Assembly (NCBI GenBank): GCA_038317055.1
Contig: JBBQBA010000002.1
Coordinates: forward strand, 136,106 to 180,966
DNA from: Candidatus Saccharimonadales bacterium
Lineage (GTDB): Bacteria > Patescibacteriota > Saccharimonadia > Saccharimonadales > DATKHC01
DNA: 44,861 bases
Reading direction: 5' to 3'
Under the pieces are notes generated by a model. That model had not been told where the DNA came from. It searched no databases and saw only the letters and a list, made by a program, of their open reading frames with translations. Both the position numbers and the translations under genes were made by a program. Position 1 is the first letter of the stretch. Each line of letters starts with the position of its first letter. Below are positions 5,441-27,727 of the stretch, piece after piece.

Positions 5441-5879
5441 GTTGACTACTCATTTTAAACCTGACAGGGTCTTTATCTTCTGAATCTTTATCTCCTACAA
5501 GTAATTGAGCATGTAAATGTTCCACACTACCACCGTTATATCGCATATCACCAGATCTCATACCTACCCCGTAACTGGTTAAACTATATTTAACTTCAAC
5601 AAGTGCAACTATATCTAAAAATTCAGACCTAGCAGACTTAGAAAGACTATTAATTGTCTTTACGTGTTTTTTTGATATCAGCAGGAAATGATACTTAGTG
5701 TTTTTATATGGAAAGTCGTTATTTTTAACATACCAATTGTCTGTTTCAATTATTATTTTTGATGTTGTTTCAGATTTAATGTTTTTTGGGCAAAAAGCAC
5801 AAACTTTTCTTCGGTCGAGATCAATCATTCGATCCAATTGTTCTTTAGCGCGTGCAGCATCAAAGTTATATTGAGCCAT
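5430..5879 (-). CDS. HIT-superfamily protein, HxHxQ (transferase/phosphorylase branch-like)
   Basis: CAFCPKN plus VEHLHAQLLV. The third His of the histidine triad is Gln, as in the GalT/Ap4A-phosphorylase branch. Its start overlaps the folA stop by 1 nt. Confidence 0.65.
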   Translation of the reverse strand: MAQYNFDAARAKEQLDRMIDLDRRKVCAFCPKNIKSETTSKIIIETDNWYVKNNDFPYKNTKYHFLLISKKHVKTINSLSKSARSEFLDIVALVEVKYSLTSYGVGMRSGDMRYNGGSVEHLHAQLLVGDKDSEDKDPVRFKMSSQPKN

Positions 5880-6382
5880 TACATCTTTCGTAGCTCAATA
5901 AAATCATAATCAAATTGGTTTTTCTCATCATTTTTATATTCTTGTTTGTTTATAGTTTTCCATTCATGTGGGTTTAGCTCAGGAAAAAAAGCATCACCAT
6001 CAATTTTAGTGTGTACGGTAGTTAAAAATATATGGTTAACAATTCCGGCATCAATAGCACTCTTATATAGTTGTCCTCCACCAATAATAAAACAAAAATC
6101 GTCACTTAAATCGATAGATTTACCTAAATCTTTGATTGATTTAAAAACCTCAAAACCATCCGGTACTTGAGTAAGTGAAGTCGATATTATTAAATTTCGG
6201 CGATTCGGAAGTGGTTTACCTAGACTGTTAATAATTGACTCATAAGTCTTTCGTCCCATAACAACTGTATGATTTTCAGTTATTTCCCTAAAGTGCTTCA
6301 TATCGTTAGATAATCGCCACGGTATAGTGTTAGCTTTTCCTATTACATGATTCTCTGATTCGGCAACAACTATTGTACTCAT
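5879..6382 (-). CDS. folA: Dihydrofolate reductase
   Basis: 167 aa. IPWRLSNDMKHFREIT, GRKTYESI and IIGGGQLY are classic DHFR motifs. ATGA overlap with thyA. Confidence 0.85.
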   Translation of the reverse strand: MSTIVVAESENHVIGKANTIPWRLSNDMKHFREITENHTVVMGRKTYESIINSLGKPLPNRRNLIISTSLTQVPDGFEVFKSIKDLGKSIDLSDDFCFIIGGGQLYKSAIDAGIVNHIFLTTVHTKIDGDAFFPELNPHEWKTINKQEYKNDEKNQFDYDFIELRKM

Positions 6383-7272
6383 GTCGCTACCGGTATTTTT
6401 AGGATTGAAGGATGAGGATCATAATCAGAAAGTTCAAAGTGTTCAGATCGAAAATCAAATATACTATTAATTTTTAAACCTTCCTTAGTTAGTTTTACGG
6501 TCGGAAGTTTTAGTGGTTTTCGTTTAATCATTTCTCTAACTTTTTCAATTTGATCTTCATAAATATGAGAATCTGAAATAGTGTGAATGTATTCGGTTGG
6601 TTCATAACCAGTTAAATGACCAATCATAATTAATAGTGCGGCATATTGAACCATATTAGACGGTACTCCAATTGGAACATCACCTGAACGCTGAAACATA
6701 TGGAGATATAATTTGCTATCTATAACACGAACATGAACCCAACCATGACACGGTGCAATAGTCACTTTTTGATGTTTACCCTTACCACGAACAATATACT
6801 GAGGAATCCAGGGTGTCACAAAATGTGTTCTCAACTCAGGTAACTCTTTAATTTGTTCGATAAGATGTTTAAATTGATTAAAGTTTTTGCCATCCTGAGT
6901 TGGAAAATCATGAAATGCGGCTCCGTATGAACCGGGTCCGATATCACCTTCTACTAATCCTCGTTTTTCAGTTTTTTCCTTCGAAGTCCAAGCGCCCCAC
7001 CAAGTACAGCCAAATTTTGCAAGTTCTTCAGTAGTCCTAGCGCCGTTTATAAATGCACAAAGTTCTCCGATTGGTTTTTGCCAAAAAGACAGTAGGCTTC
7101 TGTCTGTGATAAGCGGAAAACCATTATTTATTTTAAAGTGCATTTGAGTACCAATTACTGTTAGAGCTCTTGGTCCTTGTCTAGTATCACTAAAAACACC
7201 ATTCTTTAGAATATTTTTTAATAAATCAGAATATTGAGCATCCGGTATTCGTTTTGCAAAATCCTTATACAT
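6379..7272 (-). CDS. thyA: Thymidylate synthase (ThyA type, divergent)
   Basis: 297 aa with the catalytic APCH motif, QRSGDVPIGVPSN (QRS.D...G.P.N) and SDSHIY (GD.H.Y equivalent). Coupling to folA supports a DHF-producing ThyA. Confidence 0.8.
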   Translation of the reverse strand: MYKDFAKRIPDAQYSDLLKNILKNGVFSDTRQGPRALTVIGTQMHFKINNGFPLITDRSLLSFWQKPIGELCAFINGARTTEELAKFGCTWWGAWTSKEKTEKRGLVEGDIGPGSYGAAFHDFPTQDGKNFNQFKHLIEQIKELPELRTHFVTPWIPQYIVRGKGKHQKVTIAPCHGWVHVRVIDSKLYLHMFQRSGDVPIGVPSNMVQYAALLIMIGHLTGYEPTEYIHTISDSHIYEDQIEKVREMIKRKPLKLPTVKLTKEGLKINSIFDFRSEHFELSDYDPHPSILKIPVAT

Positions 7273-10151: not shown

Positions 10152-10526
10152 GTGGCGACGTCAGATAAAGAAAAGAATAAACCTCAAGTTCAGCCGGAAT
10201 CAGTAAGAGAACGAGCTGAAAGAGCAATTTCTGAAGCTTCTAAACCAAAAAAGAAGCAAGAACAATCTGAGACTACAAAGAAACCTGAAGTTAAATCAAA
10301 GCCAGACAAACCCAAAAAAGAAAAAAAAGAACGACTATTTCATATTGTTCCAAAATTTATTAGACAAGCATTTGTTGAAATAAAGTTAGTATCTTGGCCA
10401 AACGCCAGAACGACTTTTAAACTAACAACAGCTGTAATAATTTTTGCGACAGTATTTGCAATATTAGTAAGTTTAGTCGACTTCGGATTCGGCAAAATAT
10501 TTAAGAAGGTATTTTTACATGGTTGA
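10152..10526 (+). CDS. secE: Preprotein translocase subunit SecE with a Lys-rich N-terminal extension
   Basis: GTG start 7 nt after AGGAG. C-terminal FIRQAFVEIKLVSWPNARTT plus a single TM helix is the SecE signature. Lies directly upstream of nusG. Confidence 0.8.
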   Translation: MATSDKEKNKPQVQPESVRERAERAISEASKPKKKQEQSETTKKPEVKSKPDKPKKEKKERLFHIVPKFIRQAFVEIKLVSWPNARTTFKLTTAVIIFATVFAILVSLVDFGFGKIFKKVFLHG

Positions 10527-11061
10527 TAGATATAACACCACCAGATTATGGTACGCAATTCACACTTATAGCGGTTATGAAGAAAAAGTTGCCGAAAGTA
10601 TCAGACAAAGAGCTGATAGTTTAGACATGAAAGATAAGATATTTCAGGTCCTTGTACCTAAAGAAAAAATGATCGAAGTTAAGAACGGTAAGCGGAAAGT
10701 TGTTGAAAAGCGAATCTTTCAAGGTTACGTATTAGTACAAATGAAAATGAGCGAGGATGCTTGGTATATCGTAAGAAATACACCTAGTGTAACTGGTTTC
10801 GTTGGTAGTGGTACAGAACCTACACCGATCGAGACAGATGAGATTGAAAAAATCATGAAGAGAATGGGCCGAGAAGAGCCTAAACATAAGATTGATTATA
10901 GAATTGGTGAAGTAGTTGGAATTACCGATGGCCCATTCAAAGGATTTGATGGGGCAATTAATGAAATTGATCCTACCAAAGGTAAACTCAAAGTATTAGT
11001 TAATATGTTCGGACGAGAAACTCCTGTTGAGCTTGATAGTCTACAAGTAAAGAGAATGTAA
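10519..11061 (+). CDS. nusG: Transcription termination/antitermination factor NusG
   Basis: WYAIHTYSGYEEKV N-terminus (NGN domain) and a C-terminal KOW (GEVVGITDGPFKGFDG). Confidence 0.9.
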   Translation: MVDRYNTTRLWYAIHTYSGYEEKVAESIRQRADSLDMKDKIFQVLVPKEKMIEVKNGKRKVVEKRIFQGYVLVQMKMSEDAWYIVRNTPSVTGFVGSGTEPTPIETDEIEKIMKRMGREEPKHKIDYRIGEVVGITDGPFKGFDGAINEIDPTKGKLKVLVNMFGRETPVELDSLQVKRM

Positions 11062-11072
11062 GGGAGTATTTT

Positions 11073-11498
11073 ATGGCAAAAGTAGTAAAAGCTAATCTTA
11101 AAATGAAGATTAAAGGTGGTCAGGCAAGTGCAGCGCCTCCAGTTGGTAGTATTTTGGGACAATATGGAGTAAACATGATGGACTTCATTAATCCTTTTAA
11201 TACTAAAACTAAAGATCAAATGGGACAAAACCTAACAGTTCACATTACGGTATATGAAGATCGTACTATGGACTGGCGAGTTGTTGGGGTTCCAACTGAT
11301 GATTTAATTCGAAAAGAATTAAATATTGATAAAGGATCCGGCCGACCTAATAGTGAGAAAATTGCTAAAAAATTAAATCATTCACAGTTAACCAATATTG
11401 CTACAACTAAAGCTGGTGATATGAACACTGATGATATTGAATCTGTAAAGAAAATGGTAGCTGGTACTGCTCGCAGTATGGGCGTTGAAATAGAATAA
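11073..11498 (+). CDS. rplK: 50S ribosomal protein L11
   Basis: 141 aa with GGQASAAPPVGSILGQYGVNMMDF, the canonical L11 motif. Confidence 0.95.
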   Translation: MAKVVKANLKMKIKGGQASAAPPVGSILGQYGVNMMDFINPFNTKTKDQMGQNLTVHITVYEDRTMDWRVVGVPTDDLIRKELNIDKGSGRPNSEKIAKKLNHSQLTNIATTKAGDMNTDDIESVKKMVAGTARSMGVEIE

Positions 11499-11552
11499 TT
11501 AAATAATTTGTGGGAGGTTTAAAAAACCGAATGCACCACGAAAGGAACTATA

Positions 11553-12530
11553 ATGGCAGAATCTAAAGCAAAAGTTAAGACAGAGTCAAAGACTAAAAAA
11601 ACAAAAGTAGAGAAGATTGAAGATCCAAAAGTAATAGTTGAGACTCCAGCTGAGGCTATCGAAGAGATAGAGGTTGAAAACACAGATTCTGATGAAGAAA
11701 AACTTGCTAAATCTGGAAAACGTAGTGCTAAAGCGGTAAAAGAAACCGAAGAGAAAGAAGCTAAAGAGGAACGTAAGAAATCCAAAGATACAGACGAAGA
11801 GGCGCAAAAACCTAAAATTATACAGAAACCATCCAGATCAATTTTGGAGCGAAAGGGCAAGAAATATCAAGAAGCTTCAAAGCAGATAGAAAAAGATAAA
11901 TTCTATAGTTTAAGCGATGCACTCAGTTTAGCGGTTAAAACAAGCACATCTAAGTTTGATTCGACAGTAGAACTACACGTTAGGCTTGGAGTAGATCCCA
12001 GACAAGCCGATCAGAACATTAGAGATAATGTAACTCTTCCTTCAGGAAGCGGTAAGTCATTAAAGGTAGCTGTTTATGGTGAAGAAGATGCTGTTACTGC
12101 CGCTAAAAAAGCTGGCGCTGAGATAGCACTAGGCGATGAAATGTTACAACAATTAGAAAAAGGAATTATGGATTTTGATATTCTTATCACCACCCCTTCA
12201 CAAATGCAGAAACTAAGTAAGTATGCTCGTGTACTGGGTCCTAAAGGATTAATGCCTAACCCTAAAAATGGCTCAGTTACTACCGACATCGCTAAGGCTG
12301 TAAATGAAGCAAAAGCCGGTAAGGTTGAGTATCGTATCGATAGCACAGGTATTATTCATCTCGGAATTGGCAAAGTGAGTTTCGGTCAAACAAAACTTCA
12401 AGCGAATGCTGAGACTGTACTCGCTAGTATTAAAGCAAATAAACCTTCAAGTCTTAAGGGTAACTATGTAGTTTCTGTTTACGCTACAACTAGCATGGGC
12501 CCTTCTATTCAAATTGACCGTAATATATAA
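11553..12530 (+). CDS. rplA: 50S ribosomal protein L1 with a roughly 95-aa Lys/Glu-rich N-terminal extension
   Basis: From about residue 100 (KKYQEASKQIEKDKFYSL...VELHVRLGVDPRQADQNIR...LGPKGLMPNPK) the protein is canonical L1. Residues 1-95 are low-complexity K/E-rich. Confidence 0.9.
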   Translation: MAESKAKVKTESKTKKTKVEKIEDPKVIVETPAEAIEEIEVENTDSDEEKLAKSGKRSAKAVKETEEKEAKEERKKSKDTDEEAQKPKIIQKPSRSILERKGKKYQEASKQIEKDKFYSLSDALSLAVKTSTSKFDSTVELHVRLGVDPRQADQNIRDNVTLPSGSGKSLKVAVYGEEDAVTAAKKAGAEIALGDEMLQQLEKGIMDFDILITTPSQMQKLSKYARVLGPKGLMPNPKNGSVTTDIAKAVNEAKAGKVEYRIDSTGIIHLGIGKVSFGQTKLQANAETVLASIKANKPSSLKGNYVVSVYATTSMGPSIQIDRNI

Positions 12531-12540
12531 AAAATTATTA

Positions 12541-12569
12541 GTTCGAATCCCACAACTCCAGCCATAAGC
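12541..12569 (+). repeat. Array repeat R1; a tRNA 3'-fragment (G53 to CCA) with no 5' part
   Basis: GTTCGAATCCCACAACTCCAGCCATAAGC. This parses as T-loop TTCGAAT, 5-nt T-stem strand CCCAC, 7-nt acceptor strand AACTCCA, G73, CCA. The upstream bases (ATTAG) cannot form the T stem. Starts 10 nt after the rplA stop. Confidence 0.8.
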
Positions 12570-12572
12570 ACT

Positions 12573-12600
12573 TTGGCAAATCGAATAATTAGTGTATAAA
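12573..12600 (+). promoter_or_regulatory. Candidate promoter of cassette 1
   Basis: TTGGCA, 16-nt spacer, TATAAA. The -35 lies in the tail of R1. ATG 12610 begins 10 nt after the -10. Confidence 0.4.
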
Positions 12601-12609
12601 TTGTCTTAT

Positions 12610-12807
12610 ATGAATAGATATAAAAGCTCATGGGAAGGAACTAATATTCCACCTGATGAAATGGATCCAGTAACTGTATCAATAGACGAAATTGAAAGAG
12701 GCCAAAGAGTTAACATAGAGGTTAGACACGAAGATGGAACGGTAAAAAACTTCCATATATATACAATACCTCTTCTTGAGACTATCGAACCCCCGTTGCC
12801 TCTTTAG
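12610..12807 (+). CDS. Small hypothetical protein (cassette 1)
   Basis: 65 aa from ATG 12610; the ORF track starts at GTG 12592 (71 aa). The C-terminal codons and the TAG stop lie inside degenerate repeat copy R1b. Confidence 0.4.
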   Translation: MNRYKSSWEGTNIPPDEMDPVTVSIDEIERGQRVNIEVRHEDGTVKNFHIYTIPLLETIEPPLPL

Positions 12808-12816
12808 ACCATAAGC
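12785..12816 (+). repeat. Degenerate array repeat (R1b)
   Basis: TCGAACCCCCGTTGCCTCTTTAGACCATAAGC shares TCGAA-CCC, CTTTAG and CCATAAGC with R1 and R9. Confidence 0.35.
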
Positions 12817-12840
12817 GGGTAAATAGCTTCCATTTAGACA

Positions 12841-12877
12841 GTTCTGAACTCGGACTCTAGCCCCAGCCAAGCATAAG
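12841..12877 (+). repeat. Array repeat R2
   Basis: GTTCTGAACTCGGACTCTAGCCCCAGCCAAGCATAAG. Contains the 10-mer CCCAGCCAAG, identical to tRNA-Gln 39366-39375. Confidence 0.8.
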
Positions 12878-12884
12878 TATAATG

Positions 12885-12910
12885 AAAGACTTTTTCGGAA
12901 GTCTTTTTTT
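12885..12910 (+). terminator. Rho-independent terminator
   Basis: AAAGACTT / loop TTCGG-type / AAGTCTTT 8-bp perfect stem followed by a T-run (12907-12910). Lies downstream of R2, so R2 would be transcribed in the 3' UTR. Confidence 0.6.
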
Positions 12911-12916
12911 AAAGAT

Positions 12917-12925
12917 TGCTATACT
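12917..12925 (+). promoter_or_regulatory. Extended -10 promoter of cassette 2 (leaderless geometry)
   Basis: TGcTATACT. ATG 12932 begins exactly 7 nt after the last -10 base. No SD. Confidence 0.45.
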
Positions 12926-12931
12926 TTTTAT

Positions 12932-13531
12932 ATGAGTAAAGTAACATGTGGTATAGCGATGTCCTTGGACGGTTTTGTTGCAGGTAATAATTTGACTTTA
13001 GAAAATCCGTTCGGTGATATAAAACCAGAAATACTCATGAAGTGGATGTTCGATGAGCCCGAGAAGCATAAGAAAGAGATTGAATCGCTGACTACTGCGG
13101 GTGCATTTATTATGGGAAGTAACATGTTTGGACCCGAGGACATCCGTATGACTGATGCCTGGAAAGGCTGGTGGGGTGATAATCCACCATACCATGCCCC
13201 AGTATTTGTTTTATCACACACGAAAAGAGACCCAATAGTTATGGATGGCGGCACAACCTTTACTTTTGTAACTGATGGTATCGAATCAGCATTGAAACTC
13301 GCACGATCCGCAGCTGGAACAAAAGATGTGGATATTGCAGGCGGTGCCAATACTATTAATCAGTATCTTAGAGCTGGGCATATAGATGAATTGTGGCTAC
13401 ACATTGTTCCCGTGACTATCGGCCATGGCCAACGACTTTTTTCGGATATGCCAGACATTCATTTTAAACCACTGGAAGTACGAACGACCGATTTAGTGAC
13501 ACATATCAAATACACTATTGTTCGTACCTAA
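12932..13531 (+). CDS. RibD C-terminal domain / dihydrofolate-reductase-family protein (cassette 2)
   Basis: 199 aa. MSKVTCGIAMSLDGFVAG..., GSNMFGP and DIAGGANTINQYLRAGHIDELWLHIVPV are typical of the RibD_C (YwjB/YyaP-like) family. Confidence 0.8.
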   Translation: MSKVTCGIAMSLDGFVAGNNLTLENPFGDIKPEILMKWMFDEPEKHKKEIESLTTAGAFIMGSNMFGPEDIRMTDAWKGWWGDNPPYHAPVFVLSHTKRDPIVMDGGTTFTFVTDGIESALKLARSAAGTKDVDIAGGANTINQYLRAGHIDELWLHIVPVTIGHGQRLFSDMPDIHFKPLEVRTTDLVTHIKYTIVRT

Positions 13532-13545
13532 AATACCTGATTGTA

Positions 13546-13586
13546 GTTCTGAGATCCGACTCCAGCCCTTGCCAAACTATATAGGA
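13546..13586 (+). repeat. Array repeat R3 (the copy most like tRNA-Gln plus its flank)
   Basis: GTTCTGAGATCCGACTCCAGCCCTTGCCAAACTATATAGGA. The head matches the tRNA-Gln T-loop region with two 1-nt insertions. The tail matches the flank after tRNA-Gln in 15 of 17 alignment columns (1 mismatch, 1 single-nt gap). Confidence 0.75.
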
Positions 13587-13637
13587 ATGCCCCTTTTTTA
13601 ATTGAAATTAAGGTGGGTGTTGATTGTATTTAAAGGC

Positions 13638-13673
13638 GTTTAACACTGAACATAATGTCCAGCCAAGCATTAG
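13638..13673 (+). repeat. Array repeat R4 (internally deleted copy)
   Basis: GTT-TAACA-CTGAAC...GTCCAGCCAAGCATTAG. Shares CTGAAC and CCAGCCAAGCAT-AG with R2. The unit between R3 and R4 has no ORF. Confidence 0.55.
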
Positions 13674-13713
13674 CACTATGACACTATTCTTGGAATCTTT
13701 TCGATCGGATTAT

Positions 13714-14061
13714 TTAGTGACGCCTTAGGTATTCAAGCAGGACTTGCGCGTGATTAACTGTTGGATCATGGGCCGCGTAGAGTAATGTGGTCGTGAGATG
13801 TTCTTTAAGGATACTCTTTAGCTGCGACACTACTGGGTTAATATCAAGCTCCAATTCATAACGAACTGTAAATTCAGCGAACCGCTCTGGCTTGTGGTCA
13901 AACCATGTTCGTAGGTCAGAAGAGGGTGCGATATCTTTGAGCCACAAGTCCAACAGCGCCTTTTCCTTACTAACTCCTCTTGGCCATAATCTATCAATCA
14001 GCACCCGATAGCCGTCAGCCTTCAAAGGTTTGTCGTAGATTCGTTTTATAGAAATAGCCAT
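13714..14061 (-). CDS. DUF488 (YeaO-like) protein (cassette 4, opposite strand)
   Basis: MAISIKRIYDKPLKADGYRVLIDRLWPRGVSKEKA...WLKDIAPSSDLRTWFDH closely parallels the E. coli YeaO architecture. The ORF-track start at 14103 adds 14 unlikely residues. TATTAT lies 9 nt upstream of ATG 14061. Confidence 0.8.
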   Translation of the reverse strand: MAISIKRIYDKPLKADGYRVLIDRLWPRGVSKEKALLDLWLKDIAPSSDLRTWFDHKPERFAEFTVRYELELDINPVVSQLKSILKEHLTTTLLYAAHDPTVNHAQVLLEYLRRH

Positions 14062-14161
14062 GTACTTTTTATAATACGCCGAATCAATCGTGTTTCTCAA
14101 CAATTAATCAAATAGTGGTACAATATTTGGTAACGGTAAAATACAAAAAGAACGTTTTTTT

Positions 14162-15575
14162 ATGACGGGAACACACCCTCTAGGCAAAGCAATAAAAGAC
14201 CTGATGATTAAAGATGTGCCTAGCTATGGTAACAAGCTTTTCTATTCTTTGGGCTTTTTGTCAATGATATCATTCTTAGTTCTCATAGTTACAGGTACAA
14301 TTATGGCAATGTACGGCCCGAATTGGTGGCTAACCAGCAGCTTTGGTACTTACTTGCGCAGCGTCCATTTATGGGCCACACAAGCCTTCGTATTGTTTAT
14401 ATTGCTCCATGTGCTAATAGTGTTCTTTACGTCCGGCTTTAAGAAACCACGTCGGCTCACGTGGGTTCTTGGTGTACTTATGTTGTTTATTGTGCTTGCG
14501 GAAACTGAGTTTGGGTATGTCCTTAGAGGCGACTTTTTCCTCGCAGTGGAGAGGTTTACAAGGAGCTGACTTCTATAATGGCAGCGGACTTGGCAAGTAC
14601 TTTAACCCCTTAAATTATAATCAGATATACGGCATACACATTGTTGTAATACCACTGTCTATAATTGGCTTACTCTTTTTACATTATTTGTTAGTCCGCG
14701 TGCTAGGCATTGCCAAGCCATATAGAAAAGACGTCCATGTTAAAACCGTATCCGCGAATCATAAAATCCTATTTATGCGTGGCGGCGTCCTTGTTGTTCT
14801 CATACTGGGATTAGCTGTAGTTCTGCCCTCCCCATACATAAAACCAACGACTATCCAATCGGTCGCTCTACAAGATCCGATACTATTTAGCAAAACGGTC
14901 GTTTCTGAGCTTGATCATTCCTCAGACACTGCTACATATGTCGACAACATTGCCCCTTATACTTACGACACGCGTTCAATTTACGTTACACAGCCGTACA
15001 CTCAGCTTTTACAAACCCGTGCCATAGTTGTTAATAATCTGTCACTATTCTTCACCGAACCACGAGCAATCCAAGATCAACAGATAAAAACTCTCTCCGA
15101 CTATTTAGCTAACGATAATGCCGACTTCGCCAAGCTACCTACTAGCCCTGTTTCATCAATTGCAAAATCCTTAACCATTATGGCGCAGGCTGGGTTATAC
15201 GAGTCATCACTAAATAGCAACAGCAGCGTGACCAAATTTAAAGATGGGACCACTTACTCTAGTCGCTTTTTATCAGACACGGGGGTGCTTGAAGACAAAG
15301 CCACAGCCCTAAATATTACGACGGATCAGTACGGTATGATAAGAGAGGAAAAAGGGCACACTCCCGGCGCCTGGTGGTTAGGTCCGATTGGCATACTAAA
15401 CCATACTGTTCTTAAGAATGATGATACTGGCGATCGGGATGGCGCCATAATTTTCGGCTCGTTATTGCTCACGATGTTAGCATTTCCGTTCATCCCTTAT
15501 GTTAACCAACTTCCTGACAAGCTCAAAGTATACAAGTTAATTTGGCATGAAAAAGGCGGTCGTTTAACGAAATAG
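14162..15575 (+). pseudogene. Cytochrome b N-terminal-domain-like membrane protein, interrupted by a 1-nt frameshift in a T5 run
   Basis: Frame 1 (14162-14569) has LRSVHLWATQAFVLFILLHVL (cytochrome b/b6-like His-containing helices) and ends 30 nt after TTTTT at 14534-14538. Frame +1 (to 15575) continues as ...SSQWRGLQGADFYNG. Skipping one T joins GYVLRGDF to SSQWRG. Confidence 0.65.
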
Positions 15576-15606
15576 TTCCTGGTCCATATACTCAGTCAGC
15601 GTAAGC
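15575..15606 (+). repeat. Degenerate array repeat (R5)
   Basis: GTTCCTGGTCCATATACTCAGTCAGCGTAAGC shares GTTC.., ..TC..., CAGC.TAAGC with the family. Starts on the G of the TAG stop. Confidence 0.35.
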
Positions 15607-15628
15607 TGTTTGGGATTTATATCCAGTC

Positions 15629-15637
15629 TGATAATAT
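15629..15637 (+). promoter_or_regulatory. Extended -10 promoter of cassette 5 (leaderless geometry)
   Basis: TGaTAATAT. ATG 15644 begins exactly 7 nt after the -10. Confidence 0.4.
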
Positions 15638-15643
15638 GATTCT

Positions 15644-15913
15644 ATGAAACAGAGTAAACTCATCCTATCTCTTATAACAATTGATGCAATTGTATTTATA
15701 TTTTCTTTATCCGCAACAATTAATAATATCCAGAGACTCGAAGGGTCTATTAATAACACTCCAGTATGCAACACCGCTGCAAATGGAGGACCCTGCTATC
15801 TAACTTCAAATTTATGGGCATACTTCACTATAATGATTCTTACTGCTGGGATTATGGGGCTGCTTGCCGCCCATCTTTATAAACGAGTTATAGATAAACC
15901 AGAACCGAAATAG
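15644..15913 (+). CDS. Small two-TM membrane protein (cassette 5)
   Basis: 89 aa with two hydrophobic helices (LILSLITIDAIVFIFSL and YFTIMILTAGIMGLLAAHL). Confidence 0.5.
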   Translation: MKQSKLILSLITIDAIVFIFSLSATINNIQRLEGSINNTPVCNTAANGGPCYLTSNLWAYFTIMILTAGIMGLLAAHLYKRVIDKPEPK

Positions 15914-15933
15914 AGTCATATTTGTCCTAAAAT

Positions 15934-15966
15934 GTTCGGAACTCGGACTGGATGATCAGCCATTAG
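15934..15966 (+). repeat. Array repeat R6
   Basis: GTTCGGAACTCGGACTGGATGATCAGCCATTAG. The first 16 nt are identical to R7. Confidence 0.8.
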
Positions 15967-15987
15967 TGGTTTAACTATTTAGTGGGT

Positions 15988-16016
15988 TTGATTTATCTTA
16001 AATTAAGTCGGATAAT
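15988..16016 (+). promoter_or_regulatory. Candidate promoter of cassette 6
   Basis: TTGATT, 17-nt spacer, GATAAT. An SD GGGGA at 16031-16035 precedes ATG 16041. Confidence 0.45.
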
Positions 16017-16040
16017 AGGTACATTAAATAGGGGAATGAC

Positions 16041-16886
16041 ATGCCGAACTTAGATATGGACAGAATGTTTGAGTCTATGACAGAGCCAACAGAATTGACT
16101 GCTGAAATTGATTTAATTGGGAAAGAAGGCCAAGGTGATTTTAGAGTATCTGAAATACATGGTGGAGTACTAAATTTTTCTGAAACTATCTTCAAAGGTG
16201 TGCCTTTAGATAGTGTATATGCTCAAGAGGGTCATAGGGAGGCACAAGGTAAAGGTCCACATTTTGATTTATCGGGCGATTTTCTAGATGAACAATACCC
16301 AATACTTGGTGTTTATAACTTGTCAGGTTTCTCGATTTTGAGATTAGCTACTATGCCTGATCAACTGGCTAAGGCTTATTTTGATACATATCCTGAGCTT
16401 AATGAGGCAGCTTACGAAGCGAGAAGGCAATTTGGAGCTATTGTATTGAATGCTCCAAATATTCAATCGTTTGAAGGCAATTTTACGCCAGGTATGGCAT
16501 TAGTGATACCTCAACTAAAGAACCATGAAGGTCCTCATGTAGTCCACGAGATTATTCCGACAGGTCATGGAAATACTTTCGGAAAATATGTAAAATTAGC
16601 AGTTCCCGACTATGAAAGTGATACTGCAGTGGAAATGTTAAAGAACGATGGCTTTATTCCATTGGATGAGCTAGTAACATCTCGTTTAACCGGAGAAGAC
16701 GAAGCCAATGACAGCATAGTTAGACCAGTGGTTGTACCGGGGGTGTCTGTTTCCGATAAAAATGGTGGAATAATAGATGCATTTACTGAAGGAAGATTGC
16801 CTGCTGACCCTACTCAACCTAATAGCAGAACTACAAGAATCCCACGCCCAACTGGAAGAGCGCGAAGATCAGGCTTAATAGATTGA
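16041..16886 (+). CDS. Hypothetical protein (cassette 6), possible HxD...H cupin/oxygenase-like
   Basis: 281-aa ORF. Motif order PHFD ... GFSILRL ... GPHVVHE parallels ORF 8786-9532. Pro/Arg-rich C-terminal tail. Confidence 0.6.
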   Translation: MPNLDMDRMFESMTEPTELTAEIDLIGKEGQGDFRVSEIHGGVLNFSETIFKGVPLDSVYAQEGHREAQGKGPHFDLSGDFLDEQYPILGVYNLSGFSILRLATMPDQLAKAYFDTYPELNEAAYEARRQFGAIVLNAPNIQSFEGNFTPGMALVIPQLKNHEGPHVVHEIIPTGHGNTFGKYVKLAVPDYESDTAVEMLKNDGFIPLDELVTSRLTGEDEANDSIVRPVVVPGVSVSDKNGGIIDAFTEGRLPADPTQPNSRTTRIPRPTGRARRSGLID

Positions 16887-16948
16887 TCAAGTTTATAATT
16901 GGTTAATGTGTTAACTGTTAGGAAAATGTAATATCTGACACCTTAATT

Positions 16949-16982
16949 GTTCGGAACTCGGACTATAGCTCCAGCCATAAAC
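16949..16982 (+). repeat. Array repeat R7 (closest to consensus)
   Basis: GTTCGGAACTCGGACTATAGCTCCAGCCATAAAC. The tail GCCATAAACATTTTGAC parallels the R1 tail GCCATAAGCACTTTGGC. Confidence 0.85.
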
Positions 16983-17038
16983 ATTTTGACCTCAATCAAC
17001 TTTTATGTCGTAAAGTTTAAGTTTTAGTTACTTACGGG

Positions 17039-17047
17039 TGATATAAT
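17039..17047 (+). promoter_or_regulatory. Extended -10 promoter of cassette 7 (leaderless geometry)
   Basis: TGaTATAAT (perfect TGnTATAAT). ATG 17054 begins exactly 7 nt after the -10. Confidence 0.5.
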
Positions 17048-17053
17048 TAGATA

Positions 17054-17302
17054 ATGAGTTTAACAAGTACAGATCTAGCAGATATTAGAGGCATTCTTAA
17101 GGAGGAGCTAGAGCTACTACAAGGTGAGCTTAAAGCTTTGAGTAATGATATAAATGTTATTTACCAAATGATCTCTGATTTACAGAATAAAACATTACCA
17201 AATAAGTAATTCCAAAAACTTAGCGTGTAGCAGAAGCTTATAAAATTAAACTCTGACCTTCTTTTTGCTGCAAAACAAGCTGGTGTACGGTTACCGCGAT
17301 AA
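17054..17302 (+). pseudogene. Small coiled-coil ORF (51 aa to TAA 17207-17209) whose frame continues through TAA and TAG to 17302; likely a decayed gene
   Basis: MSLTSTDLADIRGILKEELELLQGELKALSNDINVIYQMISDLQNKTLPNK*FQKLSV*QKLIKLNSDLLFAAKQAGVRLPR*, all in one frame. Below the ORF-track size cut-off. Confidence 0.35.
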
Positions 17303-17320
17303 TTGAATATAACCTAAAAA

Positions 17321-17352
17321 GTTATGTACTCAACCTCTAGCCCCAGCCAAAT
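17321..17352 (+). repeat. Array repeat R8
   Basis: GTTATGTACTCAACCTCTAGCCCCAGCCAAAT. The 3' half CTCTAGCCCCAGCCAA is identical to R2. Confidence 0.7.
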
Positions 17353-17361
17353 TACTTAAAC

Positions 17362-17390
17362 TTGCATTGAGACATGAATAGTAAGATACT
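17362..17390 (+). promoter_or_regulatory. Candidate promoter of cassette 8
   Basis: TTGCAT, 17-nt spacer, GATACT. An SD GGAG at 17406-17409 precedes ATG 17417. Confidence 0.4.
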
Positions 17391-17416
17391 TTCATTAGAT
17401 TTAATCGGAGACAAGC

Positions 17417-17797
17417 ATGAAAATACGAAGTAAGTTAAATGAAGAAAGACATCCTGAATTCCTACCATCAGAATGTCTAGGAGAAGCATGTCCGAATTTC
17501 ACCGGTTCAGCCTGTGATGATAGTGAAGTTGAATGGATGAGAGCGGACGCTCCGACCAAAAAAAGAGATACAAAAAAACCACCTTTTAAAGATGACACAA
17601 GATATATAATTTATGGACAACGATGTCTGACTGGAGAGGGCCCAGAATTAGTAGCACAACGAGTAGAAATTTATAAACCTGACGAAGTTAATATGGCTGG
17701 AATCATTGCAATAACAGGCATGTATGGCGAAATGCCAGTTGAAGTTGTAAACGGGTATCTATCTGGGTCTATTCAGAATATCGTTACTTCAGAATAA
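17417..17797 (+). CDS. Hypothetical protein (cassette 8)
   Basis: 126-aa ORF with a GGAG SD. Cys-containing N-terminus (ECLGEACPNFTGSAC). No family recognised. Confidence 0.55.
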   Translation: MKIRSKLNEERHPEFLPSECLGEACPNFTGSACDDSEVEWMRADAPTKKRDTKKPPFKDDTRYIIYGQRCLTGEGPELVAQRVEIYKPDEVNMAGIIAITGMYGEMPVEVVNGYLSGSIQNIVTSE

Positions 17798-17798
17798 A

Positions 17799-17832
17799 GT
17801 TCGGAACTCGGTCTTTAGCTCCAGTCAAGATG
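17799..17832 (+). repeat. Array repeat R9 (last clear copy)
   Basis: GTTCGGAACTCGGTCTTTAGCTCCAGTCAAGATG, with 1 nt between it and the stop of the preceding ORF. Confidence 0.8.
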
Positions 17833-17862
17833 TAACCTTATTTTTACAATACTTGCACTAAA

Positions 17863-17871
17863 TGTTACTAT
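17863..17871 (+). promoter_or_regulatory. Extended -10 promoter upstream of the patatin-like gene
   Basis: TGtTACTAT. This geometry favours ATG 17881 (10 nt after the -10) over the ORF-track ATG 17872, which abuts the -10. Confidence 0.4.
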
Positions 17872-18864
17872 ATGTTCTCAATGAGTTTGGAAGTTTTAGA
17901 TATATTAAAGGAACGGTCATTAGACGGCTATATATCAGGTTATGATAATGACGAGCATAATGTAGTTATTTCTATAGACAGCGGGGGCATGGCGGGTTCT
18001 GTTGGTTGTGGATCCCTAGAGGTTCTACAGGAAGAAGGCTTACTTAAAGTAGTCGATGGTTACTCTGGGGCATCAATCGGAGCAATTATTGCCTCATATG
18101 CTGCATTAGGTCGCATCGATCAAATTGAAGAAGCATTTACTGAACCGATGACTGAGACTAGATTTATGGCTTCTAATTTACTAGGTAGAGTTGCATCCTA
18201 TGTTAGTTTCAAAAGAGATAAAACCGGAAATATTCCAGCCGCACAAAATATGGGAGTACTTGGTGACATTATTCATGGAGATCTCGATACAAAAAATCTA
18301 AGAATGTCTGAAGTACCAATAGTAGCTAGTATCACATCTTTAGATGAGTTTGAAACAGTTGGTCGAGACCTAAGAGAACTAAATGATAATCAAATTATAG
18401 ATTTTTTAACTCGTGGTTGTGCGTTTCCATTTGTAAGCGGCCAATATATTGGAGTTGAAGGCATTACCAGTCGAGCAATTGATGGTGCTTTTACTTTGTT
18501 AGCTAGCGAACAACTCGCACTTTCGCTAGACCCAACTAATATTCTAAGTATAGGGCTTACACCATATAAAAAATGGGAATATGGAATAAAAGAAAAACTA
18601 GCTAGAAGAATAGTTGGAATGTGGTTAGCTCAAGATGCAGGATTAGGTGTAAATATATATAAAAAATACGTCCAGCTGGGTGATGTACAAGCCGAGTATT
18701 TAAAACAGTTTAGTAAGAGTGGCTTTACTCTAAATGGAGTGATTGTGGAGAAAGTATATCCACGGGCTGATAAAGATTTGCCAGGTAGACTTACTATGGA
18801 TCCTAATAAGATAAAAAGAGGTTTCATATTAGGACGACAGGCAATGCAAACTGCGCTTAAATAA
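17872..18864 (+). CDS. Patatin-like phospholipase
   Basis: DSGGMAGSVG (oxyanion Gly-rich loop), GASIG (GxSxG nucleophile) and AIDGAF (catalytic Asp, DGA). The start may be 17881. Confidence 0.75.
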   Translation: MFSMSLEVLDILKERSLDGYISGYDNDEHNVVISIDSGGMAGSVGCGSLEVLQEEGLLKVVDGYSGASIGAIIASYAALGRIDQIEEAFTEPMTETRFMASNLLGRVASYVSFKRDKTGNIPAAQNMGVLGDIIHGDLDTKNLRMSEVPIVASITSLDEFETVGRDLRELNDNQIIDFLTRGCAFPFVSGQYIGVEGITSRAIDGAFTLLASEQLALSLDPTNILSIGLTPYKKWEYGIKEKLARRIVGMWLAQDAGLGVNIYKKYVQLGDVQAEYLKQFSKSGFTLNGVIVEKVYPRADKDLPGRLTMDPNKIKRGFILGRQAMQTALK

Positions 18865-18931
18865 AAGGTAAATAATTAAAATAATTATAATATACAAGAT
18901 CGCAAATAAATCGTTTTACTCCTAATTTAAA

Positions 18932-19114
18932 TTAAAGTATTTTCTGGTCAGGTTTAATTACTTGATCTGATTGTTTCACTGTGGAGCCATTGAGTGGCTC
19001 GTTGCTGATATGCATCTGATCAATATTTATTGTTGATACTGGAGTTAAACTACCAAGATCTTTCAGCGAACGATGATGAAATTTCCAATAAACAAATCCA
19101 CTTCCAAGTAACAC
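18932..19114 (-). CDS. Small protein; probable N-terminal TM anchor lies upstream of any canonical start
   Basis: The frame is open from 19189. The hydrophobic helix SIYYLLATVVLVLLGSGFVYW is cut by the only canonical start (GTG 19114). Only ATT codons lie further upstream. Confidence 0.3.
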   Translation of the reverse strand: MLLGSGFVYWKFHHRSLKDLGSLTPVSTINIDQMHISNEPLNGSTVKQSDQVIKPDQKIL

Positions 19115-19181
19115 AAGAACTACAGTAGCTAGTAAGTAATAAATTGAGTCAGAATTAGTGCTTTTACTAATAGGTTTAGTA

Positions 19182-20198
19182 CTAACTAGCTAACTCTATA
19201 CTTAGTAGTTTATTTTGAGCGCTGGTGAGTGTAACTTGCGTACTAGTAATTTTGTTGTTGGGTCCAACAACAATAATGGTGTGTTTACCAATTAAAACAT
19301 TTTGAAAAGTAGCTAGTCCGTCTTTATCTGTCGTAACGGACATTTTGTTATCCAGGGTTACTTTAGCTCCCGGGATTGATTGAGCCTGTTTAGTATCGAC
19401 AGCTACAGTTAGCGTGGCGGTTGATTTAACGGTAGACGAATCGACTAATGGATTTGTTGAGCTTGGTATCGCTGCTGTAATAGCTGGTGTGGTTGTGGTG
19501 GTAGTTGTTGTTTTCTTAGATGAAGAACTAGAACCTGTTCCAGAAACCGGGGTTGACCCTGAGCTTTGGGCTGGGGTAGATGTAGTTAAAAAAGTCAAAT
19601 TTTGGACTGCATTATCATTTGATACATCGCCAAAACTGAGATTACAGATATAACCCGCCGCAACCTGAGCAGGAGTTGGAGGACAAGGATATTTAGCTGC
19701 GTCAACAGCGGCATCACCGCCCGTACTATCTGTACCTGTATTTGGAGGTCCAACTGTGCCGGTAACGATAGTAAAGGCCGTTGAAGGTATATTTCCACTA
19801 CTATCAGTGTTTACTAACGCTGAAAAAGGCTTAGAGCACGATACAGGTATTGGATTCCCGAAAAAAGTGATTGTAGGTTGACTTGGATCGCTATTACATT
19901 CAAGTATTGATCCAGTTGAATTTGCCGTAAAACCTGACCCCGAAACAGTAACAACCTGTCCGTTACTAAGGTTAGTGCTTGGCGTGACACTCATGGACCC
20001 GGATGCCCAAATAACAACGGGACTAAATATATAAGCTACTACTGAAATAGTAAGTAAATATTTTATTATATTTTGTTTTATTGAAGTTTGTTTTTCTATA
20101 GTGATGCTCCTAGAACTATAGTCTACTTTGATTATACAATTAAATTGGATATTAAATATATATAATAATTTCATAAATCTCACCACTACAGTGGTCAT
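19182..20198 (-). CDS. Secreted/cell-surface protein with a poly-Thr linker
   Basis: Hydrophobic signal/anchor (YLLTISVVAYIFSPVVIWASG), a beta-rich domain (VTPSTNLSNGQVVTVSGSGF), a Ser/Thr-rich linker (KKTTTTTTTTP) and a C-terminal beta domain. Exact start uncertain. Confidence 0.6.
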   Translation of the reverse strand: MTTVVVRFMKLLYIFNIQFNCIIKVDYSSRSITIEKQTSIKQNIIKYLLTISVVAYIFSPVVIWASGSMSVTPSTNLSNGQVVTVSGSGFTANSTGSILECNSDPSQPTITFFGNPIPVSCSKPFSALVNTDSSGNIPSTAFTIVTGTVGPPNTGTDSTGGDAAVDAAKYPCPPTPAQVAAGYICNLSFGDVSNDNAVQNLTFLTTSTPAQSSGSTPVSGTGSSSSSKKTTTTTTTTPAITAAIPSSTNPLVDSSTVKSTATLTVAVDTKQAQSIPGAKVTLDNKMSVTTDKDGLATFQNVLIGKHTIIVVGPNNKITSTQVTLTSAQNKLLSIELAS

Positions 20199-20239
20199 AG
20201 GATAGGTTTTAGGTGAAATATCCCCTATAATACCTGGTT

Positions 20240-21898
20240 ATGCTCTTATCCGTTGAAATAGCTGAAAAATCTTTTGGTCATAAAACTCTATATAATGATT
20301 TAAGTTTTGATATTCAAGAAAATGAAAAAGTGGGATTTATCGGCAGGAATGGTACCGGTAAATCAACTTTGCTAAATTTAATAACCGGAGAAGATAAAGA
20401 TTTTCATGGTAAAGTTCAGATTAAGCGTGGAACAGTACTTATAAGTAGTAGGCAAGAACATCATGATCATGAAGCTAAGACAGTACTAGAATACATTCAG
20501 GGCGATTTACCGGAATACGCATACCTAACAAAGATTATCGATACATATCCAGACACGATGGGTAGTGACACTAGAAAACTACAAGTTTTTTCAGATGCGT
20601 TAGAACGTTTTGGTCAACTTGATTATTATCAAATTGAAGACGAAATTAAACAAGCTTTTGAAAGTTATCAAATTGACCCAAATAAACTTCATAAATCCAT
20701 TGGCTCATTAAGTGGTGGTGAGAAAAGAATGATAGAGCTAATTAAAGTCCAACGTAGCCGTGGGCATGTTGCACTAATTGACGAACCAACCAACCATATG
20801 GACTATGTTGCCAAAGCTGAGTTTATTAAGTGGCTCAAAAGTGCTCAAGAAGCTGTTCTTGTTATAACTCACGATAGAGACGTATTAACTACGGTAGATA
20901 GAATAATTGAGATTCGAGATGGAAAGTGTTTTAGCTTCCGAGGAAACTACGACGCATATTTAAAAACAAACACAAATCAAATTACTAATCAGGTTAATGA
21001 ATACGAATTATCTCAGAGACGTATAGCAAATCTCGAAGATGATGTTATTAGATTTAGACGATTAAAAGAAAAATCTCGTGATCCCGGTACAATTCATCGA
21101 TTTAAAGCACAAGAAACAAGAGCTAAAGACGAAATCGAAAAATTAAGAAAAACCGATAAACCTTCTTTTTGGATCGATCAAGAATCAGCAAACACGATGA
21201 ACGATAAATTAACGGCTGCTTATGACAAACATAAAGCCAAAAATATAAAAGTTTCGACCCGTAAAAAACATACAGATAGCGAAGGTAGGCGATTAATAAA
21301 AATTACTAAACTAAGCTTAGGATATGACGCCCCATTATTTAAAAATATTAACCTAGATCTACACGAGGGTGAGAGAATCAGACTACATGGTCGTAATGGG
21401 GCAGGTAAATCCACAATAGTTCAAGCGATTATGGCAGAAGCGAACAATCAGCAATTAGCATCTAAATGTTTTGATGGTTTAATAGAGGTTGAAAAAGAGA
21501 TAAAAATCGGACTATACGAACAAGAAATAAATTCTAGCTATTTAAAACTAACACTTAATGATGCACTTGAAAAAATCTTAGAAGATAAAAATCTTCCAAT
21601 TAATCCTCAAAAAATTAAACAACTTTTAAGCGATTATTTATTTAATCCTAATTCTGATGGGCAAATGTTAGTAGAACGATTAAGTGGCGGTCAAAAGGCA
21701 AGAGTACAGTTAATTTCAATGCTAGTTAATGATCCACAAGTATTAATTTTAGATGAACCAACAAATCACTTAGACCTACCTAGTATCGAAGAACTTGAAA
21801 ACTCCTTGAAAGATTATCATGGAGCTATAATATATATATCTCATGATAGCTTTTTTTCAAATAAAATGGGCGGTGATACCGTAACTATAAACGGTTAG
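20240..21898 (+). CDS. ABC-F family ATPase (two ABC domains, no TM domain)
   Basis: Two Walker A motifs (GRNGTGKST, GRNGAGKST), two signatures (LSGGEKRM, LSGGQKARV) and a charged inter-domain linker. Confidence 0.9.
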   Translation: MLLSVEIAEKSFGHKTLYNDLSFDIQENEKVGFIGRNGTGKSTLLNLITGEDKDFHGKVQIKRGTVLISSRQEHHDHEAKTVLEYIQGDLPEYAYLTKIIDTYPDTMGSDTRKLQVFSDALERFGQLDYYQIEDEIKQAFESYQIDPNKLHKSIGSLSGGEKRMIELIKVQRSRGHVALIDEPTNHMDYVAKAEFIKWLKSAQEAVLVITHDRDVLTTVDRIIEIRDGKCFSFRGNYDAYLKTNTNQITNQVNEYELSQRRIANLEDDVIRFRRLKEKSRDPGTIHRFKAQETRAKDEIEKLRKTDKPSFWIDQESANTMNDKLTAAYDKHKAKNIKVSTRKKHTDSEGRRLIKITKLSLGYDAPLFKNINLDLHEGERIRLHGRNGAGKSTIVQAIMAEANNQQLASKCFDGLIEVEKEIKIGLYEQEINSSYLKLTLNDALEKILEDKNLPINPQKIKQLLSDYLFNPNSDGQMLVERLSGGQKARVQLISMLVNDPQVLILDEPTNHLDLPSIEELENSLKDYHGAIIYISHDSFFSNKMGGDTVTING

Positions 21899-21959
21899 TT
21901 ATTAATTTAATATCCAATAGTCAGAATTGGTTATCTCATTATTGATATATAATGAACTT

Positions 21960-22511
21960 ATGTATTTAAGTAAGAATCAAGTTGCTCCAAACTTTACTAT
22001 TTCCGATATAAACGGCAAAAAGATTAAGTTAAGTGATTACGAAGGTAAAAAGCTACTTCTTTGTTTTTTTAGATATGCTGGTTGTCCATTCTGTAACTTA
22101 ATTCTTCAGAGTTTTATAGAACGCTACCCTAAACTTCATAAAAACGGTTTAGAGATATTAGCTTTTGTTCAATCTCCTAAAGAATCAATAATAGACTATA
22201 CGATGAAGCGTCATCATCCCAAACCACCTTTCCCCTTAATTGCTGATCCCAAACAAGAAATATACAAACTGTACGGAGTAGAAGCATCTGTGAGTAAGTT
22301 CGCTAGAAGTATTTTTAAAGTACCTTCTATGTTGAAAACTCTATATAAATATAAATATCCGCAAGGTAAAATAGACGGAAATGTTTTTTTAATGCCGGCA
22401 TTTTTCTTAATAGGTCCAGACGATCTAAAAATTTACGAATCTTATTATAGCCCTGATTTTTCAACGATGATACCAGATATAGATATAATCAATTTTCTCT
22501 CGGCGGTATAG
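21960..22511 (+). CDS. AhpC/TSA-redoxin family thioredoxin-fold protein (CPFC motif)
   Basis: APNFTISDINGKKIKLSDYEGKKLLLCFFRYAGCPFC is a peroxiredoxin-like N-terminus. ATG 21960 is preferred over TTG 21927. Confidence 0.65.
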   Translation: MYLSKNQVAPNFTISDINGKKIKLSDYEGKKLLLCFFRYAGCPFCNLILQSFIERYPKLHKNGLEILAFVQSPKESIIDYTMKRHHPKPPFPLIADPKQEIYKLYGVEASVSKFARSIFKVPSMLKTLYKYKYPQGKIDGNVFLMPAFFLIGPDDLKIYESYYSPDFSTMIPDIDIINFLSAV

Positions 22512-22514
22512 TCT

Positions 22515-27298: not shown

Positions 27299-27310
27299 TT
27301 AAATATAGGT

Positions 27311-27658: not shown

Positions 27659-27727
27659 TTTTATATTCCCAAAGATTTATTAACAAATAGAATCATAACT
27701 CTTGCATAGAATAAATCAAGTACATTA

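Follow-up and report, generated by a model that had tools for sequence, protein, structure and literature searches.

Repeats resembling a tRNA-Gln gene end separate small gene cassettes behind rplA in a Saccharibacteria genome: a probable array of attachment sites

Little is understood of how genes are gained by Saccharibacteria and other Patescibacteria, whose genomes are tiny and which live on other bacteria. The window analyzed here, a stretch of 44,861 nucleotides, is chromosomal DNA of a member of the Saccharibacteria (Saccharimonadales), and MAGs of this group supply all the best relatives of its ribosomal protein L1. Eight repeats (R1 to R8), all on the plus strand and all within 12540-17837, separate gene cassettes of 0.1-2.3 kb. 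The question raised by this locus is what these repeats are, and why one of them, R3, resembles the 3' end of a tRNA-Gln gene together with the DNA following it. The original prediction had answered with common descent of the repeat and the tRNA-Gln 3' end plus flank.

To place the repeats in their gene context we annotated the window with Pfam and Rfam. The genes secE-nusG-rplK-rplA lie at 10152-12530, rplJ-rplL at 27879-28871 and an L10 leader at 27753. There are two tRNAs, tRNA-Trp at 1844 and tRNA-Gln(UUG) at 39300-39373 with encoded CCA, and these two and the L10 leader are the only Rfam matches in the window at gathering score. The landmarks are:

11553-12530, plus strand: rplA (L1; Pfam Ribosomal_L1), the last conserved gene before the insertion
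17872-22511, mixed strands: distal, repeat-free part of the insertion; Pfam finds a patatin-like phospholipase, a neocarzinostatin/Ig-like secreted protein (minus strand), an ABC-F ATPase and an AhpC/TSA peroxiredoxin
22515-24203, minus strand: mprF-like gene, at which the conserved backbone resumes
39300-39386, plus strand: tRNA-Gln(UUG) (39300-39373; ARAGORN, Rfam) plus the 13-nt flank AGACTATTTAGGA, which matches the R3 tail

A 10 kb insertion (12531-22514) separates rplA from mprF in the window. It is absent from the three closest relatives fetched for this junction: the gap between the rplA stop and the convergent mprF end is 7 nt in L084 and 2 nt in L087, and in L085 the rplA stop overlaps the annotated mprF end, a split mprF fragment, by 4 nt. 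In all three, mprF is followed by dcd, tmk-thyX and rplJ. The L1 of L084 is 79% identical to that of the window. The GC content of the array is 0.40, compared to 0.34 in the backbone. In the distal part the repeat profile detects no decayed repeats (17.8-22.5 kb). Its genes are absent from 32 Saccharibacteria rplA loci, save weak ABC-F-like matches upstream of rplA in L015 and L024, and none occurs in the gene tables of L084, L085 and L087. A secreted-looking protein in this part (19182-20198, minus strand) combines a neocarzinostatin-family domain, a Ser/Thr-rich linker and a CarboxypepD_reg/Ig-like domain.

A sequence-only covariance model was made from the eight window copies. Scanned against the window, it returned exactly R1-R8 and had no other match below E=1; the outcome was the same for a second model, based on 14 copies from four genomes. 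The eight copies are:

12540-12577, plus strand: R1, a 25-nt pseudo-tRNA 3' fragment AGTTCGAATCCCACAACTCCAGCCA with tail TAAGCACTTTGGC, 10 nt after the rplA stop; E=0.0028
12833-12884, plus strand: R2, expanded, GTTCTGAACTCGGACTCTAGCCCCAGCCA with tail AGCATAAGTA; profile E=2e-12
13542-13588, plus strand: R3, expanded, with tail AACTATATAGGAA; profile E=1.8e-7
13629-13679, plus strand: R4, degenerate (…CTGAACATAATGTCCAGCCA) with tail AGCATTAGCACTATGAC; profile E=2.6e-4
15926-15975, plus strand: R5, expanded; profile E=1e-9
16941-16989, plus strand: R6, expanded, with tail TAAACATTTTGAC; profile E=3e-11
17313-17362, plus strand: R7, expanded, with diverged head; profile E=4e-9
17793-17837, plus strand: R8, the last recognizable repeat, ending CCAGTCA; profile E=9e-10

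The window copies are mutually about 60-80% alike over approximately 45 nt. Seven are "expanded" and read (CCTAAAA)GTTCnGAACTCGGACTnTAGCyCCAGCCA, followed by the tail. R1 is the sole "compact" copy: AGTTCGAATCCCACAACTCCAGCCA has the exact tRNA geometry from G53 to A76, with T-loop, a 5-nt T-stem strand and a 7-nt acceptor strand ending in A72, then G73 and CCA, a pattern typical of bacterial tRNA-Gln. No tRNA was called at the position of R1. By eye the tails contain CATAA-like motifs and no consistent dif-like site, and all sites are direct. From repeat to repeat the spacings are 305, 705, 91, 2297, 1015, 372 and 478 nt, and each repeat follows an ORF at a distance of 1-55 nt.

The DNA between the repeats is organized as follows:

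12592-12807, plus strand: cassette 1, a 71-aa ORF of no known family
12932-13531, plus strand: cassette 2, a RibD_C-domain reductase-like protein; GC 0.43
13714-15913, mixed strands: cassette 4 (2.3 kb), with DUF488 (13714-14103, minus), a cytochrome-b-like gene (14162-14569 and 14469-15575, plus) and an 89-aa membrane ORF (15644-15913, plus)
16041-16886, plus strand: cassette 5, a 281-aa protein of a small uncharacterized family
17054-17209, plus strand: cassette 6, a 51-aa coiled-coil-like ORF
17417-17797, plus strand: cassette 7, a 126-aa ORF of no known family

R3 and R4 are spaced by only 91 nt and enclose an empty cassette position. The ORFs are co-oriented with the repeats in 8 out of 9 cases in the window, and orientation is mixed in relatives. 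The three genes of cassette 4 have GC contents of 0.44, 0.43 and 0.37. For the protein of cassette 5 a word-indexed search finds only the protein itself, and 97 remote homologues are found at ≤44% identity. PADLOC and PHROGs give no function for the cassette proteins; their matches are confined to the distal block, with a weak phospholipase match for the patatin protein and a generic ABC-ATPase match for the ABC-F protein. No cassette is common to the genomes compared, as expected for a locus of fast turnover. The cytochrome-b-like gene of cassette 4 (Cytochrome_B N-terminal domains) is split over two overlapping frames, either as a frameshifted pseudogene or by an assembly error; it lies in a cassette of a lineage from which respiration is not expected.

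The resemblance of R3 to the tRNA-Gln end was then quantified. Positions 13546-13586 read GTTCTGAGATCCGACTCCAGCCCTTGCCAAACTATATAGGA, with coordinates and letters as in the original prediction, and positions 39370-39386 read GCCAAGACTATTTAGGA, which is the end of tRNA-Gln plus 13 nt of flank. Local alignment of the R3 end, GCCAA-ACTATATAGGA, with GCCAAGACTATTTAGGA reproduced exactly the 15 identities, one mismatch and one gap that had been claimed, and the exact 10-mer reported for R2 is also there (CCCAGCCAAG, as at 39366-39375). The head of R3 had been equated with the T-loop region. Here a resemblance remains by inspection, GTTC[T]GAG[A]TCC to GTTCGAGTCC, which is not significant alone.

If R3 plus 20 nt is aligned un-anchored to 39340-39400, the local score is 22; dinucleotide shuffles reach 11.9 ± 2.2 (z 4.5, p~0.005), and among all same-length windows of the sequence 0.4% score as high. 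This is the comparison with shuffles that the original prediction had proposed as a check; the other repeats gave p values from 0.004 to 0.17. An anchored test is the fairer one because the CCA is where the match starts in both sequences. With the CCA end as anchor, R3 is at an edit distance of 2 from AGACTATTTAGGA; a distance of 2 or less occurs at a fraction of 1.1e-4 of the positions on both strands, or approximately 1e-3 after eight repeats tested. Exact matches to the 11-mer ACTATWTAGGA are found at just these two places in the window, and both lie 1-2 nt behind a GCCA end. The first repeat profile has no match to the tRNA-Gln end at E≤10, and the second reaches it at E=0.45 only, via CCCAGCCA and the tail only. 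Left of this shared block the repeats carry a conserved arm of their own, (CCTAAAA)GTTCnGAACTCGGACTnTAG, which is T-arm-like and not alignable with the T-arm. Downstream of the window's own tRNA-Gln the profile recognizes no repeat, decayed ones included. Directly behind this tRNA lies a gene for a neprosin-family (PF03080) protein with a signal-like N-terminus (39474-40397, minus strand), and every relative compared has different genes at this place.

To follow the repeat beyond the window, the tRNA-Gln(UUG) loci of five relatives were fetched via the hydrolase next to tRNA-Gln. In three of them (L088, L090, L093) the tRNA-Gln(UUG) gene is intact and has a cassette array immediately downstream, on the strand of the tRNA, in which 2-3 repeats of the present family (E from 1e-11 to 2e-4) separate cassettes of 0.45-0.77 kb. 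The tRNA-Gln is identical to that of the window in L088 and differs by one base in L093 and by two in L090. Two repeats stand behind the tRNA in L088, the second of them (r2) degenerate or truncated; in L090 two repeats flank a 128-aa ORF and an RHH-PIN toxin-antitoxin pair (L090 689-1333); L093 has three. The head of L093 r2 is identical to the head of window R2 in 29 out of 29 positions, and its tail is of the R1 type. For comparison, the clade proteins compared are mostly about 45-95% identical to those of the window (NusG 97-99%). The search of related genomes for cassettes at the tRNA-Gln 3' end, likewise proposed at the outset, is positive, and it is the decisive support for common descent of the repeat and the tRNA-Gln 3' end with its flank.

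Just after the CCA of tRNA-Gln, four out of five relatives (the exception is L094) share one flank family, (AGCA)TAAGCAnTTTG, which is also the tail of window R2 and R4, more loosely of R1 and R6, and occurs in L022a as well. The R4 tail is at an anchored edit distance of 3 to the L088 tRNA-Gln flank (p=2e-4); the R2 tail matches the L091 flank (anchored p=4.5e-4) and also that of L088. Past the flank the DNA is unrelated in every genome compared: the tRNA-Gln of L091 is identical to that of the window over 74 of 74 positions, the common sequence runs on to GCCAAG, and from 2 nt past the CCA all similarity is lost.

The rplA junction was scanned in 32 Saccharibacteria rplA loci (motif and k-mer), and the repeat core in all 82 loci in hand. 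Among these the repeat was found only in L022, a locus of the complete chromosome OY969420.1, from which L088 also comes. Its rplA|mprF junction holds a 0.67-kb one-cassette insertion made of the compact fragment AGATCGAATTCCTAATCCCCGGCCA followed by AGCATAAGC, a single gene, and an expanded repeat that abuts the stop codon of mprF. The left repeat carries the tail of its own genome's tRNA-Gln, and this fragment behind rplA looks orthologous to window R1. A scan of genome contigs with an exact degenerate pattern found no repeat. The sole metagenome-contig match of this pattern (L002) was rejected as a chance match in GC-rich coding sequence, and its sole viral-contig match (L095) as a GC-rich chance match.

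Further copies occur in the sediment metagenome SRR19962015, the run to which the window also belongs. A contig of 10,141 nt, at 9.4x depth compared to 8.4-9.3x for the window, carries at least four repeat copies at cassette-like spacing, so that this genome would have one or more additional arrays. One of these copies joins an exact R6-type head to AACTATATAGGAA, the tail of R3; the tail thus recurs as a component of the repeat. Among the tails, the R3 type (ACTATATAGGA) is a minority allele, seen in this genome only, in R3, at its own tRNA-Gln and in one copy on another contig of the sample. One more copy, on a 3,456-nt contig of the same depth, has TAAGCACTTTA behind it, a sequence similar to the R1 tail. 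Diverged copies belonging to other strains are present on shorter contigs of low depth. An apparent deletion joint (12872->16949) was discarded as an alignment artefact, in which the repeat of another contig matches two window repeats.

We therefore regard the eight repeats as probable attachment (att) sites: small cassettes, none with a recombinase of its own, would have inserted again and again by site-specific recombination and would have left the repeats behind. The primary chromosomal target would be the extreme 3' end of tRNA-Gln(UUG). The att block common to the tRNA locus and the repeats would consist of CCCAGCCA (the last acceptor bases, G73 and CCA; approximately 8 nt) and approximately 13-20 nt of flank. 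The label "attB-like", given to the tRNA-Gln region by the original prediction, is inferred for this genome, as the window's own tRNA-Gln has no recognizable repeat downstream; 39300-39386 would be the primary attachment site. Two facts would place the crossover within CCCAGCCA or immediately behind it: the tRNA remains intact next to the cassettes, and the repeats share only CCCAGCCA and the tail with the tRNA locus, their heads not being alignable with the tRNA. The same reasoning was applied to the ssrA islands of Dehalococcoides (PMC3146451).

A new cassette would insert at an existing site, leading to tandem growth of the array, and heads and tails would re-assort during accretion. Such re-assortment would explain R3, in which a cassette-type head is joined to the tail of this genome's tRNA-Gln. 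The resulting layout would begin with the gene end (or R1) carrying an element tail, continue with internal junctions of head and tail, and have decayed older material farthest away. The window array would stand at a second site, with R1, the 25-nt pseudo-tRNA-Gln 3' fragment behind rplA, at its start. The cassettes may still be mobile at present.

The recombinase would have to act in trans, as for cis-mobilisable elements (PMC5704250) or integron cassettes, because the units are too small to encode one and none was found within reach. With Pfam and NCBIfam no integrase or recombinase was detected among all ORFs of the 44.9 kb window, nor near the arrays of the relatives (up to 10 kb on each side; 0.5-2 kb past the array in short contigs). 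No replication genes accompany the partial-tRNA-type repeats. The conserved 398-aa protein of unknown function is a polytopic membrane protein.

Several observations weigh against the att-site reading. No integrase was found, the assembled contigs show no excision product, circular junction or polymorphism within populations, the genome's own tRNA-Gln is without a repeat, the profile match to it stands at E=0.45, and cassette orientation is mostly the same and not uniform. Furthermore, legitimate recombination does not explain how a compact tRNA-type head reached the rplA site in two genomes while their closest relatives are without it, since legitimate excision never mobilizes the gene-side arm.

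One alternative sees in the locus a graveyard of full-size integrative elements (prophages or islands with integrases) that entered tRNA-Gln-type sites and were whittled down by deletion, the cassettes being inert remnants. The absence of an integrase agrees with this, as do the frameshift that splits the cytochrome b-like cargo gene, the degenerate or truncated state of R4 and of L088 r2, the loss of any repeats from the distal 4.7 kb of the insertion, and the decay to att-only elements documented elsewhere (PMC5704250). We nevertheless consider it unlikely: the tidy order of ORF, repeat and ORF with units of 0.1-2.3 kb recurs in four genomes and at two loci, Pfam finds no integrase fragments, and the heads are highly conserved across genomes (29/29), unlike inert scars.

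The repeat could also be a self-spreading or regulatory intergenic sequence, for instance a REP/MITE-like or tRNA-derived element, a terminator or an RNA-processing signal, without having brought the genes in between. Copies at three or more loci of the same genome and their position right after stop codons would suit such an element. The copies of each locus are, however, clustered in one orientation and anchored at the tRNA-Gln end or the pseudo-fragment, and the intervening DNA is absent from relatives. Single-strand DNA folding of the eight repeats is no better than that of shuffles (z from -0.9 to +1.2), no Rfam family matches them at E≤10, and they have no terminal inverted repeats. As they neither fold nor match an RNA family, the repeats are not attC-type hairpins, terminators or tRNA-like RNAs. 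A role of the tails as outward promoters is unsupported as well, promoter-like sites not being enriched (16 compared to 16.6 in shuffles). Altogether an intergenic repeat of this kind appears quite improbable.

Equally improbable is a role of the repeats as short homology anchors, between which natural transformation and RecA-dependent exchange would move genes with no dedicated recombinase. This would account for the failure to find a recombinase and for identical heads in different genomes. Against it stands that the copies within one genome are only about 60-80% alike over approximately 45 nt; RecA does not work efficiently on stretches so short and so diverged. Finally, a chance similarity of AT-rich sequences is hardly credible as the source of the match between R3 and the tRNA-Gln flank, since the merely moderate un-anchored significance (p~0.005) and the profile E=0.45 are outweighed by the anchored p~1e-4, a motif unique to two places in the window, the same tail behind a third copy in the sample and the physical attachment of the relatives' arrays to tRNA-Gln.

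If the repeats are att sites, the closest known kinds are the tandem accretion of non-autonomous elements at tRNA or tmRNA gene ends (CIMEs, Dehalococcoides ssrA islands) and the tRNA-seeded islands of Prochlorococcus. The present arrays are set apart from them by the cassette size, by the lack of an adjacent recombinase in our searches, by att identity that lies mostly in the flank, and by the second array on a pseudo-tRNA fragment behind a ribosomal-protein operon. The Dehalococcoides ssrA islands (PMC3146451) are likewise tandem insertions downstream of a small RNA gene, bounded by direct repeats of its 3' end; there too the crossover is located by a motif preceding the repeat, which is conserved from copy to copy and not alignable with the gene, and some units without an integration module are read as cis-mobilisable. 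Those units are many kb long, often with a serine recombinase module next to attL, whereas here units of 0.1-2.3 kb with no recombinase found sit at a tRNA-Gln target, with the shared block mostly in the flank and a second array behind rplA.

CIMEs formed by site-specific accretion of the ICESt1/ICESt3 type (PMC5704250) also retain attL and attR without integration or transfer genes, lie in tandem at the 3' end of the target gene and rely on the recombinase of another element. They are decayed ICEs and IMEs of Firmicutes measuring kb to tens of kb, in contrast to single-gene cassettes in an episymbiont-type genome of approximately 0.8 Mb with no helper element seen. The Tycheposon islands of Prochlorococcus (bioRxiv 10.1101/2020.12.28.424599) share with our case a streamlined genome, a start at tRNA genes, partial tRNA copies between integrations, older remnants further in and a cargo that is adaptive or of unknown function. 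Tycheposons have a tyrosine recombinase, replication genes and partial tRNAs spread over many kb; the arrays described here, with cassette-sized units, no recombinase found and only about 8 nt of tRNA in common, fall outside that class.

Chromosomal integrons and CALINs come near in architecture, with same-strand arrays of single-gene cassettes of fast turnover (here mostly co-oriented in the window and of mixed orientation in the relatives), site-like repeats of about 50 nt and, in CALINs, no adjacent recombinase. The repeats here differ from attC sites in that they are not imperfect palindromes and do not fold. The R'/R'' GTTRRRY cores are absent from the repeat alignment, there is no IntI in the window, and the repeats derive from a tRNA gene end and its flank. 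REP/MITE-type repeats are a poor fit too, as the copies have one orientation, are clustered and anchored at tRNA-Gln or pseudo-tRNA, and do not fold.

The intact target gene at one end and the displaced 3' fragment at the other, known from Islander-type tRNA/tmRNA islands (PMC4383910), are seen in L088, L090 and L093, where the tRNA forms one boundary and same-strand 3'-end repeats form the others. The window departs from this boundary rule: its left "gene" end is R1, a 25-nt pseudo-fragment only, and the real tRNA-Gln lies 21 kb away without a repeat behind it. Synteny is interrupted as in tRNA-targeted islands, both at the rplA|mprF junction relative to L084, L085 and L087 and in the DNA after tRNA-Gln. 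An integrase gene, present in autonomous islands, is not found here, so only the non-autonomous (CIME-like) sub-class fits.

Our literature searches turned up neither att-bounded cassette arrays nor tRNA-anchored islands in Saccharibacteria or Patescibacteria, and the arrangement has apparently not been described in these groups before. A conserved and easily recognized repeat that marks hot spots of gene turnover would help to map the flexible genome, and it would direct the search for the recombinase that is still missing. Genetic tools for cultivable members could be inserted at a natural, defined place, namely the tRNA-Gln end or the 3' site of rplA. In a wider sense, the locus would show that att sites derived from a tRNA end can give rise to an architecture like that of integrons, with no need for hairpin attC sites. 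We tentatively extend this to the idea, possible though doubtful at present, that the clade possesses an integron-like capture platform which is not an integron: a recombinase encoded elsewhere would insert and shuffle cassettes of one gene each, acting on double-stranded att sites made up of the final 8 nt of tRNA-Gln and its flank, and one array would have been relocated behind the highly expressed rplKA operon. If this is true, read-through from the rplKA operon could express newly captured genes.

Some minor observations concern the surroundings of the array. After R2, at 12886-12911, there is a clean hairpin with a T-run (AAAGACTTTTTCGGAAGTCTTTTTTT), which a consensus terminator scan missed because its stem is AT-rich; no hairpin of this kind lies between rplA and the first cassette ORF. 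Just upstream of dnaX, at 29613-29636, TCTCTAGCCAAAAGAGTTATAAT weakly matches both repeat profiles (E=0.41 and 3.5) and may be a decayed repeat or chance; L085 carries extra genes at the corresponding position. The L1 protein has a Lys/Glu-rich N-terminal extension of about 95-120 aa (11553-11900), which seems to be a feature of the clade, as the L1 proteins of relatives measure 295-373 aa. In the whole clade the rplKA and rplJL operons are not adjacent, and the (mprF)-dcd-tmk/thyX block lies between them (window 12530-27879; loci L003-L031). Part of this block is a 735-aa thymidylate kinase-ThyX fusion (25091-27298), kept in relatives. ThyA and DHFR are encoded in addition (5879-7272), so that both types of thymidylate synthase occur in one small genome.
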